This document shows, piece by piece, positions 48,945 through 54,387 of a stretch of DNA of 64,000 bases. Source of the stretch: an uncultured Opitutia bacterium (lineage in GTDB: Bacteria > Verrucomicrobiota > Verrucomicrobiia > Opitutales > Opitutaceae). Where the stretch lies: contig CAIJFT010000286.1 in NCBI GenBank assembly GCA_903820035.1, forward strand, positions 102 through 64,101, written 5' to 3'. The notes below the pieces were generated by a model, which was not told the origin of the DNA, made no database searches, and was given only the letters and a program-made list of their open reading frames with translations. The position numbers were made by a program, and so were the translations under genes. How positions within the stretch are numbered: position 1 is the first letter of the stretch; every line of letters begins with the position of its first letter.

Positions 48945-50321
48945 ATGCAATCGCCCTCCCCTGCCACCCGTCGCACGTTCCTGAAAACCCTCGGCGCCGC
49001 TGGCGTCGCCGCCCCGTTCATCGCCCGCAGCCTCCGCGCCGCGGCACCAAGCGGCGTCCTGCGCCACGTCAGCTTCGGCTCGGCCGGCATGGCCTGGGCC
49101 GACCTGCAGGCGATCACCAGCAATCCATTTGTGAAGCTCGTCGCGGTCGCCGACGTCGATCTCAACCGCACGAAGCAGGTGAAGGAGGCGTTCCCCGATG
49201 TGAAGGTCTATCAGGACTGGCGCCAGTTGCTCGACAAGGAGAAGAACAACTTCGACTCCGCCAACGTTTCCACCCCGGACCACATGCACGCCGCCATTGC
49301 GATGTCCGCGATGCAACTCGGCAAGCACGTCTACTGTCAGAAGCCGCTCGCACACGACATCTACGAGACGCGCATGCTCACCAACTACGCCCGCGAGAAG
49401 AAGCTCGTGACGCAGATGGGCATCCAGATTCATTCTTACAAGGTGTACCGTCAGGCCGTCGCCCTCGTGCAGAGCGGCGTCATCGGCAAGGTCAAGGAAG
49501 TCCACACCTGGAGTAACAAGAAATGGGGCGACCTCGGCGCACCCGTGGTCAAATACGACCCGGTACCGTCGAATCTCGACTGGGATATTTGGCTCGGCGG
49601 CGCGGCGGCGCGGCCGTTTGTCGGCGGCGGTTATTATCACCCGAGCAACTGGCGCAAGCGGCTCGACTTCGGCACCGGCACGTTCGGTGACATGGGCTGC
49701 CACATTTTTGATCCGGTGTTCGAGGCGCTGGCATTGACGTCGCCACTGTCCCTCCGCTCCGAGGGTCCGGCACCGGACCAGTGGAATTGGGCGGTCAACG
49801 CGAAGATTCACTACGTCTTCCCGGGCACGAAATTCACCGAGGACAAAACGGTGCCGATCACCTGGTACGACGGCGACGAGCGTCCGCCGGCGGAGATCCG
49901 CGCGCTGATCGAAACCCCGGCCGCCGAGGCCGCGGCCAAGTCGGGCAAACGCAAAGGCGGCGAAGCCGACAATCAGGGTTCGATCATCATCGGCACGCAG
50001 GGCGTGTTGCACATCCCGCACGTCGCGGCGCCGAAGCTGTTCCCGATCGCCAAGTTTAAGGACTACAAGCTCCCCGAGTGCGAACAGGGGCACCATTGGA
50101 CCGAGTGGGCCGAGGCGTGCATGAAGGGTGGCAAGCCCGGCGCGAACTTCGATTACTCGGGCCCGCTCACCGAAGCGGTGCTGCTCGGCAGCGTCGCGGT
50201 GCGCTTCCCGAAGACGAAGCTCGAGTGGAACGGCGCGAAGCTGCAATTCGACAACGAACGCGGCGCGAACCAGTTCCTCCGCCGCACTTACCGCAAGGGT
50301 TGGGAAGTCGCAGGCTTGTAA
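48945..50321 (+). CDS. Tat-exported Gfo/Idh/MocA oxidoreductase
   Basis: TRRTFLK; NVSTPDHMHA, KHVYCQKPLA, GTFGDMGCH. Confidence 0.93.
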   Translation: MQSPSPATRRTFLKTLGAAGVAAPFIARSLRAAAPSGVLRHVSFGSAGMAWADLQAITSNPFVKLVAVADVDLNRTKQVKEAFPDVKVYQDWRQLLDKEKNNFDSANVSTPDHMHAAIAMSAMQLGKHVYCQKPLAHDIYETRMLTNYAREKKLVTQMGIQIHSYKVYRQAVALVQSGVIGKVKEVHTWSNKKWGDLGAPVVKYDPVPSNLDWDIWLGGAAARPFVGGGYYHPSNWRKRLDFGTGTFGDMGCHIFDPVFEALALTSPLSLRSEGPAPDQWNWAVNAKIHYVFPGTKFTEDKTVPITWYDGDERPPAEIRALIETPAAEAAAKSGKRKGGEADNQGSIIIGTQGVLHIPHVAAPKLFPIAKFKDYKLPECEQGHHWTEWAEACMKGGKPGANFDYSGPLTEAVLLGSVAVRFPKTKLEWNGAKLQFDNERGANQFLRRTYRKGWEVAGL

Positions 50322-50439
50322 GCCCGGAGCTTCAGCGTCGGGCGCGGGTTCAGTCCCGGCCCGACAGCGTCGGCGCGATTCAGCATCGCGTCTTTCTGCT
50401 CGCCGCACCTTCCCTGCCCGCGGCACGCTTCGCCTGAGC

Positions 50440-51657
50440 ATGAAGAACGGACTCCACCCCGGCCAGACCGGAGATCTGCTTTGGGTCGTCGATCCAACGA
50501 TGACAATCACCCTCGGCGGACTCCCGGCCGCGACCGTGTTTTCAACGCCGTTCATGATCATGCTCATGGAACGGGCGGCCCGGGAGGCCCTGCGGCCGTT
50601 TCTCGAGGACAGCGAGGAATCGGTCGGCGTCGAAGTTCAAGTGGAGCACCTGGGGCCCGCCGCCCTCGGCGACACCGTCCGGGGCTTAGCCCGCGTCACC
50701 GCCGTGGACGGACGCCGCGTGCATTTCGCCGTGCAGGCCTTCGCCGGTGACCGCGAAATTGGCCGCGGCACCCATCGTCGGGCCGTCGTGAATCTCAATC
50801 GGATCGTCGAAAACGTGGAAAAACTCTGTGGCGATCAGGGTCGGGCTCTCGCGCTTGAACCCAATCCTGGCAACCTGCCGCCCCTCGAAACGCTGCGCGT
50901 GGCGACCAAGGACCGGGTGACCACGGTGACGTTTCGCCGGCCGGATGCACTCAACGCGGTCAACGTACGGATGACCGGTGAATGGGAACAGGTCATGAGT
51001 TGGCTGGCCGGTCATCCCGAGGAGGTCCGCGTGGCCATCCTGACCGGTGCCGGTAGCGCCTTTTGCGCTGGCGACGACGTGAAGGAACTGGCGTCGCTTT
51101 CGCTCGACGAGGCGCGCCGCCTCAGCCTGCGGCAGGCGAACCTTTGGCTGGCGGCCGAACGGTTGCCGCAGCCCGTCATCGCGGCAGTCAACGGCCCGGC
51201 CCTTGGCGCCGGCTGCGTGGCCGCCTACTCCTGCGATTTCCGCGTCGCCGCGCATGCCGCAACCTTCGGGATGCCCGAAATCAAGCTCGGCTGGCCGCCG
51301 GGTTACGGCGTGGCGCAACTGACCGCGATCGTGGGTAAGGCCCGCGCGTTGGAACTCTGCCTGCTTGGCGAATCCATCCCGGCGACGAAGGCGCTGGAGT
51401 GGGGTCTCGTGCACGAGGTTGTGCCCGGCGCGATGCTGCTCACCCGCGCGCAACACCTTGCCGACCGCCTGCTCGCGTTGCCCGCCGAAGCCCTGCGTGC
51501 CACCAAACGGCTCGTGCATGCGGACGAAGGTCAACTACCCAAGATCACGCATCGCGCCGACACCGAGGCGTACATCCGTTGCCTCGCCCTACCCGATGCG
51601 CAGGAAGGGATCGCCGCTTTCGCCGCGAAACGAAAACCACAGTTCCGCGGAAAGTAG
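50440..51657 (+). CDS. FlK-type hotdog thioesterase fused to crotonase (enoyl-CoA hydratase/isomerase) domain
   Basis: ATG 50440; VFSTPFMIMLME and VEHLGP (FlK Thr/Glu/His pattern); FCAGDD, NGPALGAGC, FGMPEIKLG, DAQEGIAAFAAKRKPQF. Confidence 0.85.
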   Translation: MKNGLHPGQTGDLLWVVDPTMTITLGGLPAATVFSTPFMIMLMERAAREALRPFLEDSEESVGVEVQVEHLGPAALGDTVRGLARVTAVDGRRVHFAVQAFAGDREIGRGTHRRAVVNLNRIVENVEKLCGDQGRALALEPNPGNLPPLETLRVATKDRVTTVTFRRPDALNAVNVRMTGEWEQVMSWLAGHPEEVRVAILTGAGSAFCAGDDVKELASLSLDEARRLSLRQANLWLAAERLPQPVIAAVNGPALGAGCVAAYSCDFRVAAHAATFGMPEIKLGWPPGYGVAQLTAIVGKARALELCLLGESIPATKALEWGLVHEVVPGAMLLTRAQHLADRLLALPAEALRATKRLVHADEGQLPKITHRADTEAYIRCLALPDAQEGIAAFAAKRKPQFRGK

Positions 51658-51670
51658 GCGGAAGTCGCCT

Positions 51671-51822
51671 GTAGTCCTGCGCGTGAGCGCAGGGAATCCG
51701 TCGCCTTCCGCTCATAGTCGACCCGGCCGCCTGGCGGGCGCCCGCCACGGGGCGGGCCTATTTCGGAAAATCCGGACCGCACGTCCGAGCCACATGCGCC
51801 CTGCGCTCACCCGCAGGGCGAC
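51671..51822. repeat. REP family A doublet enclosing a degenerate inner inverted pair
   Basis: 51671-51694 vs reverse complement of 51799-51822: 21/24. Inner units at 51717-51739 and 51740-51761 (ATAG GCCCGCC CCGT GGCGGGC on the minus strand). Confidence 0.8.
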
Positions 51823-51837: not shown

Positions 51838-54105
51838 TCACTTCTTCATGATCGCGTACACGCTCGCGAAGTCATCCGTCCAAAGCACGCCGGGTTTCTT
51901 ACTGGTCTCGGGGCCTTCCGCGATCTCGCGAATGCGCTCCTTCTCAAGCAACGCCTTGTTCTTCGTCACGAGCATCCACGAGGTCGCATAGATCCACCAA
52001 TCGGGCTCGTTGTCGTCCGACATGTGCACGACCTCGAGACCGAAGTGCGAGGCGAGCTTTTCCACGACCGGGCGCAGATCGAGATAACGGTTGGAAATAT
52101 GCACCGCGAGCACCCCGTCCGGCTTCAGCTGACGCAGGTAGATTTCAAACGCCTCCTTGGTCAACAAGTGCACCGGAATCGCATCGCTGCTGAACGCGTC
52201 GAGTGCCAGCAGGTCGAATTGCTGCGACTGTTTCTCCTGCAGTTCGCGTTCCATCATCAGGCGCGCATCACCCATCACGACATCGAGCTTGGCTTGGCAG
52301 TACTCGAGGTACTTGAAGTGCGTGCGCGCGAGTTCCTGCACGACGGGGTTGATCTCGTAAATGCGCAGGTAGTCGCCCTTGCGGCCGTAAGTCGCGAGCG
52401 TACCGGTGCCGAGACCGACGAGACCGAGGCGGCGCGGCGCCTCCGGCAGTGAACTGATCGCACGACCGACGCCGCTGGTGTCGCAATAATAGGTCGTTGG
52501 GGTCATCGCCTTCTCCGGCTTCACAAACTGGATGCCGTGGGTGGTCGCACCGTGCAGCAGGAGGTGGTAGTTATCCTCGGCATCGTCGGGGTAGTAGTTG
52601 AAGACCTTCAGCGTGCCGTAGAAGTTACGCGTCGAGCTGAGCGTCGGGACACTACTGCGCTCACCCCACTGCATCACGAAGACCGCACCGACACCGACGC
52701 AGAGGATCATGACAAAGAGGCCCGCGCGCGGCAGCCACTCGCGGCTCAGCGCCCGACGGCGGAGGTCGAACAGACATCCGATAATCAGCACCAGGCCCGC
52801 GACGATGTAGGGTGCGCGGTCGCGAAAAAAGGCCGTGCCCTCCGCGAGCAGACCGGGGCTGTCCTCAAAATTCGAGCGCAGCCACGGTAAGCCGACCGTC
52901 GTGAGCAGCGCGCCCACCGCGGCGGCCAGCGCCAGCTCGCGGCTCCGATGGCGGAAACACAGGACGCCGAGCGCGTAGCTGAGCAACCAGAGCCCGAGCT
53001 GAAGTTCGCGGTAGTCGCGGAACAGTGCCGGGGCCACGATGGCGACGAGGAAACCGCCCAGCGCCCCGCCGGCGGAGATAAAGAGGAAGTACGAGGTCAG
53101 TTGCTGGGGCGGCGGCTTCAGCCGGTAGAGTTCACCGTGACAAACCATGCAGGCCACAAAGAGGGTCGCGGTGTAAGCGATGATCTGCAGGCGCATCGGC
53201 GCGTCGTTACCGACGGGCAGCAACTGGCAAACGAACGCGGTGCCGATAAAAAACAACGCCGTGAAAATCCCGCGGTGGTACCAGCGCGCGTGGTCAAAGC
53301 AGACAATGAAGGTGACCAGATACAGGCTGAGCGGGAGCACCCAAAGGAAGGGAATGACGGCGACCTCCTGACAGAGCTTATTGGTCGTGGCCAGCAGCAG
53401 CACCGAGGCGATGGCCGGCAGCGCGACCCAAAGCAGTTTATCCACGGCTTGCGGCGACTCTCCGGCCGGCGCGGCCGCGGGCGGAGTGGCGGTCGCAGCG
53501 GAAGCGATCGGCACCGTTCCATCACCCTTGCGCCAGACCAGAACGGCGCAGTAACCGCAGACCAAGACAAAGAAGCCCAACCCCACCGACCACATCGTCG
53601 CCTGGGTCTGCCGGGGGAAATTCACCTCGAAGAACAACGGATAGCTGAGCAGGGCGAGCAGCGAACCGACATTGGATAACGCGTACAAGCGGTACGGTGA
53701 CACCCCCGGATTCGTCCGGCTGAACCATTGCTGCATCAGCGGGCCGGTCGACGACAACACGAAGTACGGGAGGCCGATCGTGGCCAGCAAAAGAAGGAGG
53801 ATCTGCAGGTTCGGGTCGCCCGATACCTGCACGTGCCAGCCGGCCGACGGCGTGATCGGCAGCATCGCCAGCGACAGGGCCATCAGAATGAAGTGCACGA
53901 TCACCTGCCGCTTCGGCGTGAGCCGCGTCGACGAAAAGTGCGCGTACGCATAGCCCCCGAGCAGCACCATCTGAAAGAACAGGAGGCAGGTGGTCCATAC
54001 GCCCGGGCCGCCACCGAACCAGGGCAAAATATATTTACCAATCAAGGGTTGGACCTGAAACAGCAGGAAAGCTCCCGTGAAAATCGTGAGCGCGAAGGGC
54101 AACAT
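51838..54105 (-). CDS. Fused membrane domain / spermidine-synthase-like SAM-dependent transferase
   Basis: ATG 54105; many TM segments (FQVQPLIGK, PYRLYALSNVGS); LHGATTHG, VGLGTGT, YEINP, LDAFSSDAIPVHLLT. Confidence 0.88.
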   Translation of the reverse strand: MLPFALTIFTGAFLLFQVQPLIGKYILPWFGGGPGVWTTCLLFFQMVLLGGYAYAHFSSTRLTPKRQVIVHFILMALSLAMLPITPSAGWHVQVSGDPNLQILLLLLATIGLPYFVLSSTGPLMQQWFSRTNPGVSPYRLYALSNVGSLLALLSYPLFFEVNFPRQTQATMWSVGLGFFVLVCGYCAVLVWRKGDGTVPIASAATATPPAAAPAGESPQAVDKLLWVALPAIASVLLLATTNKLCQEVAVIPFLWVLPLSLYLVTFIVCFDHARWYHRGIFTALFFIGTAFVCQLLPVGNDAPMRLQIIAYTATLFVACMVCHGELYRLKPPPQQLTSYFLFISAGGALGGFLVAIVAPALFRDYRELQLGLWLLSYALGVLCFRHRSRELALAAAVGALLTTVGLPWLRSNFEDSPGLLAEGTAFFRDRAPYIVAGLVLIIGCLFDLRRRALSREWLPRAGLFVMILCVGVGAVFVMQWGERSSVPTLSSTRNFYGTLKVFNYYPDDAEDNYHLLLHGATTHGIQFVKPEKAMTPTTYYCDTSGVGRAISSLPEAPRRLGLVGLGTGTLATYGRKGDYLRIYEINPVVQELARTHFKYLEYCQAKLDVVMGDARLMMERELQEKQSQQFDLLALDAFSSDAIPVHLLTKEAFEIYLRQLKPDGVLAVHISNRYLDLRPVVEKLASHFGLEVVHMSDDNEPDWWIYATSWMLVTKNKALLEKERIREIAEGPETSKKPGVLWTDDFASVYAIMKK

Positions 54106-54387
54106 GGTGATGCGGGCTGGGATGGGATGGGGGAAGTCTGGACGAATCCGGAAACCGTGCATGACGGACGACATCGGGAATCGATGCAATGCTGCGCGTG
54201 GGCGGCGCGACCGTTGGCCGAGGATTCGTCCCGCGTTTGCCGGTTCACCCGACGAGGCAGACGGGAGTCGCTTGCAGAACGCCCGGTCGACGGCAGGCCG
54301 ACCGGACAATTTCACCCCGCGGCCCCGAATCGCGGAACCCACCCGATTCGGCGTGAGTCCGACGGGCTCGTGCTGCAACCTCCGCCC

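Follow-up and report, generated by a model that had tools for sequence, protein, structure and literature searches.

The window is a 64,000-nucleotide stretch of DNA from an uncultured Opitutia bacterium. Its gene at 50440-51657 on the plus strand encodes a protein in which a thioesterase of the FlK type is fused to a crotonase. The protein belongs to a real, uncharacterised family of two-domain enzymes, inside known superfamilies, with an altered crotonase active site. The most economical reading of its putative activity is that it modifies an acyl-coenzyme A (acyl-CoA) and then releases the free acid; we infer both activities, their order and the substrate. Tentatively, we suggest a bifunctional acyl-CoA enzyme that is an accessory of the bacterial microcompartment (BMC) for rhamnose and fucose and acts on lactyl-CoA or a close 2-hydroxyacyl-CoA. 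Taken whole, this statement is possible and falls short of probable.

The gene is a single uninterrupted frame of 405 codons from its ATG. In an alignment of fusion sequences all homologues begin with MK(P/N/S)GL, so ATG 50440 is the correct start. The longer start at GTG 50128 is backed by no homologue and would overlap the upstream Gfo/Idh/MocA gene (48945-50321). Pfam places FlK (PF22636) at residues 17-118 with 109 bits and ECH_1 (PF00378) at residues 157-404 with 181.5 bits (cut-off 27 for each). ECH_2 (PF16113), of the 3-hydroxyisobutyryl-CoA hydrolase (HIBCH) type, also scores 93 bits but covers the same residues as ECH_1 (181 bits). An AlphaFold2 model built with 83 input sequences has a predicted local distance difference test score (pLDDT) of 94.5 and a predicted template modelling score of 0.85. 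Its confidence dips only at a loop around residues 361-370 and at the inter-domain linker (residues 131-150, pLDDT 70-85), which varies in length and sequence between homologues. The fusion alignment contains no terminal extension past the two domains, although no dedicated prediction of encapsulation peptides was made.

The N-terminal domain retains the complete FlK active site. A phmmer search against PDB sequences aligned residues 31-124 to FlK residues 37-130 without gaps, at a constant offset of 6 (3kv7, E 4e-16). Thr36, Glu44, Gly63, His70 and Arg114 correspond to FlK Thr42, Glu50, Gly69, His76 and Arg120, and all five are invariant in 27 divergent fusions (down to 34% identity). In FlK, catalysis depends on Thr42 and His76, Glu50 gives the active site its shape, and the fluorine of the substrate is recognised by Arg120 and the Gly69 amide (PMC2903362). 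The domain thus shares with FlK of Streptomyces cattleya (3kv7, PF22636) the hotdog fold, about 95 residues of gap-free alignment and all five site residues. It differs in being fused to a crotonase, in having no fluorometabolite context around its gene, and in the gate. The hydrophobic gate of FlK (33-FAEFP-37, with Phe33 and Phe36) is not conserved; a variable loop replaces it, which reads GLPAA in the window protein, with Ala30 at the Phe36 position, and which varies in sequence and carries indels among homologues.

The crotonase domain lacks one of the two carboxylates expected of a hydratase. In alignments to 5zai, 6lvp (HyECH) and Mycobacterium tuberculosis EchA8, GAGCV (residues 256-260) stands opposite GGGxE, and MPEIKLG opposite LPEIxLG. 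In the numbering of rat enoyl-CoA hydratase (ECH), Val260 occupies position 144 and Glu280 position 164, the sites of the two hydratase glutamates. Both oxyanion-hole segments are intact, as FCAGDD (208-213) and GAGC (256-259). Among the 27 divergent fusions, 26 have no Glu at 260. Glu280, Trp285 and Asp266 are invariant or almost so across the family, and Trp285 is its hallmark. With the AlphaFold2 model as query, Foldseek matched the crotonase half only, best to 5zai (TM score 0.95, root-mean-square deviation 1.5 A). None of the 25 NCBIfam families listed reached its equivalog cut-off; EchA19 came nearest, with 194 bits where 400 are required. With one of the two catalytic glutamates missing, the protein falls outside ECH sensu stricto (EC 4.2.1.17).

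These alignments uphold every tested detail that a preliminary description of the gene had read from the sequence: the Thr-x7-Glu plus His arrangement of FlK, the preserved oxyanion segments and PE glutamate, and the replacement of the Glu144 equivalent by Val. Beyond that description, the FlK domain also retains the counterparts of Arg120 and Gly69, which in FlK sense the alpha-fluorine. Its label of a crotonase with a single glutamate was right about the missing Glu144 equivalent and incomplete in implying one carboxylate only, given an acidic residue at position 212 that is specific to the family.

Residue 212 (Asp in the window protein, in F-C-A-G-D212-D) is the one that we take to be the Ala98 equivalent, the first oxyanion-hole residue, by counting along the ECHS1 sequence. 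About 90% of family members have Asp or Glu at this position. In the 27 divergent fusions it is Asp or Glu in 23, Asn in 2, Ser in 1 and Ala in 1. The only fusion with Glu260 (P0154, with GAGFE) has Ala212, and the 61 stand-alone crotonases found in the same search have Ala212, Glu260 and Glu280. No sequence among these 27 fusions and 61 stand-alone crotonases combines an acidic residue 212 with Glu260. This reciprocal pattern suggests that the carboxylate moved from 260 to 212. P0154 itself is a very divergent FlK-crotonase fusion; it retains the canonical hydratase residues, GAGFE and an Ala for Ala98, and may either have arisen by a separate fusion or preserve the family's ancestral state.

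An essential catalytic role for a relocated Asp212 is weakened by its loss in part of the family. Val or Ala stands at 212 in 10 of 121 close homologues (about 8%), and also in three loci of a rhamnose-linked clade described below (L014, L020 and L071). With Asp212 lost in about 8% of close members, its catalytic role is unproven, and we treat residue 212 as a probable substrate contact. Most of the 10 also carry Leu283->Arg and Thr or Ala at 260. The sub-clade with Asp212->Val and Leu283->Arg comprises P0058, P0099, P0101, P0107, P0108, P0113-P0115, P0119, P0120 and locus L020. The swap reverses the charge in the presumed acyl pocket and may mark a change of substrate.

Comparison with known crotonases is compatible with proton chemistry at the altered site. 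Glu144 is the water-activating residue of hydratases such as rat ECH. The one-carboxylate crotonases include decarboxylases (MMCD, ECHDC1) and delta3,delta2-enoyl-CoA isomerase. With short-chain hydratases and 3-hydroxypropionyl-CoA dehydratase (5zai, 3h81, 1dub) the window protein shares the crotonase fold at 36-40% identity, both oxyanion segments, and the Glu164 equivalent in PE(I/V)xLG. It differs from them in having Val at Glu144, Asp at Ala98, LGWPPGYG in place of LGxxPGxGGTQR, and an extra N-terminal domain. With one-carboxylate crotonases it has in common that the Glu164-type carboxylate alone is universal, which fits proton shuttling rather than hydration; in contrast, no specific sequence kinship to them came to light, and an isomerase product has no obvious need of a dedicated thioesterase. 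The logic of a crotonase-fold step followed immediately by thioester hydrolysis is known from crotonase and HIBCH in valine and propionate catabolism, and from 4-chlorobenzoyl-CoA dehalogenase and 4-hydroxybenzoyl-CoA thioesterase, where a hotdog enzyme performs the hydrolysis. Both pairs are separate proteins from other subfamilies, whereas the window enzyme is one polypeptide with an FlK-type thioesterase.

Among sequenced proteins the family is not rare. A search of 5.8 billion proteins returned at least 120 clusters whose identity ranges from 66 to 89%; almost all have a length of exactly 405 residues, and they come from NCBI, JGI, ENA and Logan assemblies labelled Verrucomicrobia, Planctomycetes and Acidobacteria. 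An exhaustive search of representatives added about 30 full-length fusions at 34-53% identity. Architecture and key residues are kept in the 120 listed clusters, two alignments, 80 genome loci and 80 metagenome loci. The ESM Atlas holds two clusters with FlK and ECH domains (135 and 70 members, mostly Planctomycetota). It also holds another hotdog-plus-crotonase architecture, a fusion of a MaoC dehydratase hotdog with a crotonase (150-member cluster, mainly Bacteroidota). No solved structure spanned both domains among the Foldseek matches listed. Literature searches on the FlK-crotonase fusion, FlK homologues, lactoyl-CoA thioesterase, and the rhamnose/fucose microcompartment with enoyl-CoA hydratase found nothing relevant, in keeping with the preliminary description, which knew of no characterised protein with this architecture. 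COG5496 receives a passing mention only, in a paper on tropolone.

Few genomes carry the gene, and its distribution is patchy. Scanning 185,579 species genomes with a sequence pattern turned up 95 hits, from which 80 loci were kept, all in metagenome-assembled genomes (MAGs), mostly of Planctomycetota with some Verrucomicrobiota and Acidobacteriota. In even samples, 2 of 201 Verrucomicrobiota have the gene (one being the window genome) and none of 200 other Planctomycetota, and a genome of the same genus lacks it. In a quick maximum-likelihood tree (midpoint root only, SH-aLRT support), the window gene groups with those of Opitutaceae MAGs, and a group of Verrucomicrobiota and Acidobacteriota is nested among Planctomycetota branches. 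Rarity, patchiness and 66-78% identity across phyla together point to horizontal spread of an accessory gene. Several lake MAGs carry public titles that look implausible for their sequences ('Akkermansia muciniphila', 'Candidatus Kuenenia', 'Chitinophaga', 'Pirellula staleyi DSM 6068 isolate'; L007, L008, L017, L023, L024, L039, L045, L047, L050). Their genes fall with those of freshwater Planctomycetota and Verrucomicrobiota on the gene tree, and the taxon labels of these records are untrustworthy.

The lead to a role comes from a clade with SH-aLRT support of 100, which contains 10 genome loci from Acidobacteriota and two 'Verrucomicrobiia' MAGs. Two of its loci (L013 and L015) read, in order, BMC-T, a PduS-like flavoprotein, DeoR, three BMC-H, three EutN, a CoA-acylating aldehyde dehydrogenase, a class II aldolase, the fusion gene, a major facilitator superfamily transporter and an FGGY sugar kinase. 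The fusion gene follows the aldolase after 20 bp in L013 and after 9 bp in L015. In L020 the fusion gene lies between the aldolase and the L-rhamnose isomerase gene rhaA (L020:4196-5449, 677 bits), separated from them by 7 and 6 bp. Such short distances to the aldolase and RhaA genes (6-20 bp) indicate co-transcription. In L022 the fusion gene is about 2 kb beyond the BMC locus, beside RhaT. RhaT occurs near the fusion gene in 8 genome loci (adjacent or one gene off in 7, about 9 kb away in L006), and a GH78 alpha-L-rhamnosidase directly adjoins it in L011 and L071. Metagenome loci of the same identity class include 6 with RhaT, 3 with GH78 and 2 with BMC genes. Throughout the clade the rhamnose genes stay while the other flank varies. 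In one metagenome locus, a RhaA remnant with its C-terminal 150 residues recognisable (L097:8554-9006) lies 22 bp upstream of the fusion gene; it looks like a leftover of an older arrangement of RhaA and fusion gene.

These loci are of the Planctomycetes/Verrucomicrobia (PVM) type, a microcompartment for L-fucose and L-rhamnose with a signature class II aldolase and lactaldehyde as its aldehyde intermediate (PMC4207490). In some bacteria of soil and lakes the fusion gene is found inside such loci, straight after the aldolase (L013, L015 and L020). It is outside the core and ancillary gene lists of that study, in whose text the terms 'enoyl-CoA' and 'thioesterase' are both absent (PMC4207490), and most PVM loci lack it. 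The preliminary description had proposed a detoxification or biosynthetic step. The rhamnose/fucose microcompartment context found in part of the range points to the catabolism or clean-up of a small oxygenated acyl-CoA, and away from biosynthesis.

BMC shell genes are present in 46 of 50 carrier genomes. In Verrucomicrobiota and Acidobacteriota, 17 of 18 carriers have BMC genes, against base rates of 3-13%: the marker PTAC is found in 26 of 201 Verrucomicrobiota (the window genome included, and both carriers among the 26) and in 5 of 150 Acidobacteriota (0 of the 5 with the fusion gene). Outside Planctomycetota, the microcompartment is close to necessary and far from sufficient for carrying the fusion gene. 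Because carriers are related and may have acquired the gene together with the locus, this co-occurrence carries limited statistical weight. The Planctomycetota figures (46 of 50 carriers against 30 of 100 genomes with BMC shell genes phylum-wide) were set aside as evidence; they are confounded, with PTAC in 75 of 80 Planctomycetaceae, the family of genome G025.

The window genome, which is 98% complete, fits this association. On other contigs (C15, locus L087, and C334, locus L088) it has a complete PVM-type locus comprising genes for acetate kinase, BMC-H, EutN (three), aldehyde dehydrogenase, class II aldolase and an Ldh-like protein; PTAC and another two BMC-H genes are on a short contig.

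Under the lactyl-CoA reading, the crotonase domain would bind a short acyl-CoA and polarise its thioester in the intact oxyanion hole. Glu280 would be the one universal acid/base, possibly aided by Asp or Glu at 212, in an enolate-type step, which could be an isomerisation, an epimerisation, or a hydration able to proceed without the Glu144 carboxylate. The FlK-type domain, presumably as a dimer, would offer its Thr/His/Glu site together with an Arg/Gly pocket for a polar atom on C-alpha, and would then hydrolyse the product to free acid and CoA. The gene would be an optional, horizontally mobile accessory of L-rhamnose and L-fucose catabolism through the PVM-type microcompartment. Lactyl-CoA (2-hydroxypropanoyl-CoA) or a close 2-hydroxyacyl-CoA would be the likeliest substrate, since lactyl-CoA is the sole CoA ester of the PVM pathway. 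A hydroxyl group is isosteric with fluorine, which would explain the use of an FlK-type pocket.

Several observations weigh against this reading. The substrate is a guess from pathway logic, and we know of no crotonase reaction on a 2-hydroxyacyl-CoA. About 60 Planctomycetota loci and the window show no conserved neighbour, queries for rhamnose and microcompartment genes gave no match within the window, and the fusion gene is outside the PVM locus of its own genome. Most genomes with a microcompartment lack the fusion gene (24 of 26 among the Verrucomicrobiota sampled, 5 of 5 among the Acidobacteriota). Within Planctomycetaceae co-occurrence is uninformative because the microcompartment is nearly universal there. 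The operon evidence amounts to about one or two independent events, since nearly all of it comes from one clade of about 10 genome loci. Finally, PTAC is present in L013, L015 and L022, so a thioesterase is not needed there for CoA recycling; a role as a PTAC replacement was rejected on the same evidence.

The strongest alternative, which we regard as doubtful, is a hydratase plus hydrolase acting on a toxic short enoyl-CoA such as acryloyl-, methacrylyl- or crotonyl-CoA. Glu280 would act with water activated by Asp212 or another group, and the FlK domain would hydrolyse the 3-hydroxyacyl-CoA, in the same two-step logic as crotonase and HIBCH in valine and propionate catabolism. The closest relatives are indeed short-chain hydratases and 3-hydroxypropionyl-CoA dehydratase (5zai, E 2e-46, TM score 0.95; EchA8; Clostridium crotonase). 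The oxyanion segments and Glu280 are intact, an acidic residue 212 alternates with Glu260, and the window genome offers no other clear candidate for the job, its remaining crotonases being one plain enzyme and MenB. Yet the water-activating Glu144 is absent in all members but one, about 8% of close members do without Asp212, and no NCBIfam hydratase equivalog is reached (best 194 bits against 400). Moreover, neither an acyl-CoA dehydrogenase nor a 3-hydroxyacid dehydrogenase is a conserved neighbour, and the rhamnose context yields no enoyl-CoAs.

General housekeeping of the CoA pool, or metabolite repair, would need no specific tie to rhamnose, and the adjacency in the clade would be inherited synteny; we consider this unlikely. 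The substrate would be some stray acyl-CoA, such as a malonyl-type ester undergoing decarboxylation before hydrolysis; decarboxylases are known among one-carboxylate crotonases. A gene that is solitary and without a conserved neighbour at most loci, with a terminator-like hairpin upstream in the window, is what this explanation expects. A conserved Arg231 in the acyl-pocket helix and the swap of Asp212->Val with Leu283->Arg likewise suggest polar or charged acyl groups. Inherited synteny fits less well with rhamnose genes that stay while the other flank varies, with the short gaps indicating co-transcription with the aldolase and RhaA genes, or with strong microcompartment co-occurrence in two phyla where the organelle is rare. 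Nor would a housekeeping enzyme be missing from a genome of the same genus.

Further down, and very unlikely, is a single-polypeptide, CoA-dependent glyoxalase system for methylglyoxal or glyoxal. The aldehyde and CoA would form a hemithioacetal, and the crotonase would isomerise this by way of an enediolate bound in the oxyanion hole, giving lactyl-CoA or glycolyl-CoA. In this step Glu280 would carry a proton from C1 to C2, like the catalytic Glu of triose-phosphate isomerase and glyoxalase I, and the FlK-type domain would serve as the glyoxalase II equivalent, releasing lactate and CoA. Such a system would suit a solitary and patchy gene, the loss of the water-activating Glu144, and a pathway that makes dihydroxyacetone phosphate and lactaldehyde. 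The window genome has a methylglyoxal synthase (188 bits, over cut-off), and none of glyoxalase I, glutathione-type glyoxalase II and glutathione synthetase scored over its cut-off there. However, relatives without the fusion gene probably have the same glyoxalase gaps.

A true fluoroacetyl-CoA thioesterase, conferring resistance to environmental fluoroacetate and fused to a crotonase incidentally, is highly improbable. It would account for the five retained residues of catalysis and fluorine recognition, but the same residue set is widespread in PF22636 proteins of non-producers and the FAEFP gate is not kept (GLPAA in the window protein). No fluorometabolite genes are nearby, and neither the fusion partner nor the sugar-catabolic context is linked to fluoroacetate. 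An assembly or gene-calling artefact joining two genes, against which the preliminary description had cautioned, has a negligible chance given the single frame, the confident AlphaFold2 model, more than 120 clusters with the same 405-residue architecture, and a separate metagenome contig (L089) that is 100% identical over residues 39-405, domain junction included.

Both halves of the protein come from well-studied superfamilies, and their combination has no characterised member. The family departs from crotonase rules in that the second carboxylate, when present, is on an oxyanion-hole residue instead of the Glu144 position. Finding an entire FlK-type site, 'fluorine-reading' Arg/Gly pair included, in organisms unlinked to fluorometabolites suggests that the FlK pocket first served alpha-oxygenated acyl-CoAs and that its use for fluoroacetyl-CoA came later. 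The association with the rhamnose/fucose microcompartment is the first lead to a role and makes a testable hypothesis. If correct, the enzyme would be an unlisted accessory of this organelle that processes lactyl-CoA or a by-product, which would bear on how abundant polysaccharide degraders handle reactive C3 intermediates and prevent their CoA from being tied up.

Coordinates of the fusion gene, its domains and key residues, and adjacent features are given in Table 1.

Table 1. Features of the fusion gene and its flanking sequence (window positions)
Feature	Position	Strand	Details
FlK-like thioesterase + crotonase, whole coding sequence	50440..51657	+	405 residues + stop codon
FlK-family hotdog domain, residues 17-118	50488..50793	+	Pfam PF22636; FlK 3kv7 alignment
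Closing hotdog helix (residues 119-130), then flexible inter-domain linker (residues 131-150)	50794..50889	+	AlphaFold2 secondary structure, pLDDT
Crotonase-fold domain, residues 151-405	50890..51654	+	Pfam, alignments, Foldseek
FlK-domain residues	Thr36 50545-50547; Glu44 50569-50571; Gly63 50626-50628; His70 50647-50649; Arg114 50779-50781	+	Codons checked
Crotonase residues	Asp212 51073-51075; Val260 51217-51219; Glu280 51277-51279; Trp285 51292-51294	+	Codons checked
Terminator-like hairpin with T-rich tail, between Gfo/Idh/MocA gene and fusion gene	50372..50392	+	Count of such sites no higher than in shuffled sequence
Nested inverted repeats resembling repetitive extragenic palindromes, in gap (180 bp) before convergent gene	51658..51822	.	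24-nt arms 104 nt apart, inner palindromes

Across carriers, no neighbour family recurred in more than 12 of 81 loci when the neighbours were clustered all against all. DUF1501 proteins, pyrroloquinoline quinone propellers, Ser/Thr kinases and sulfatases were rejected as conserved neighbours, being merely abundant Planctomycetota paralogues. The neighbours in the window look unrelated to the fusion gene: an oxidoreductase of the Gfo/Idh/MocA family with a twin-arginine signal, a molybdenum-cofactor oxidoreductase, a heparinase-like protein, a large membrane protein, and pilus/type II secretion ATPases. The upstream terminator-like hairpin weakly suggests that the fusion gene is transcribed alone in the window. 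The convergent neighbour (51838-54378, minus strand) encodes 846 residues that look like a polytopic membrane protein, with no Pfam match at E <= 1e-3.

A MenB or 1,4-dihydroxy-2-naphthoyl-CoA thioesterase role for the fusion protein was rejected: the window genome has a separate true MenB (466 bits), and hydratases are a far better match to the fusion protein. Apart from the fusion gene, the genome has just two crotonase-fold genes, this MenB and one plain hydratase-like gene (L002 G000:C408, L003 G000:C314), the latter divergent from the gene for a CaiB-type CoA-transferase. The window organism appears to be without an ordinary beta-oxidation set.

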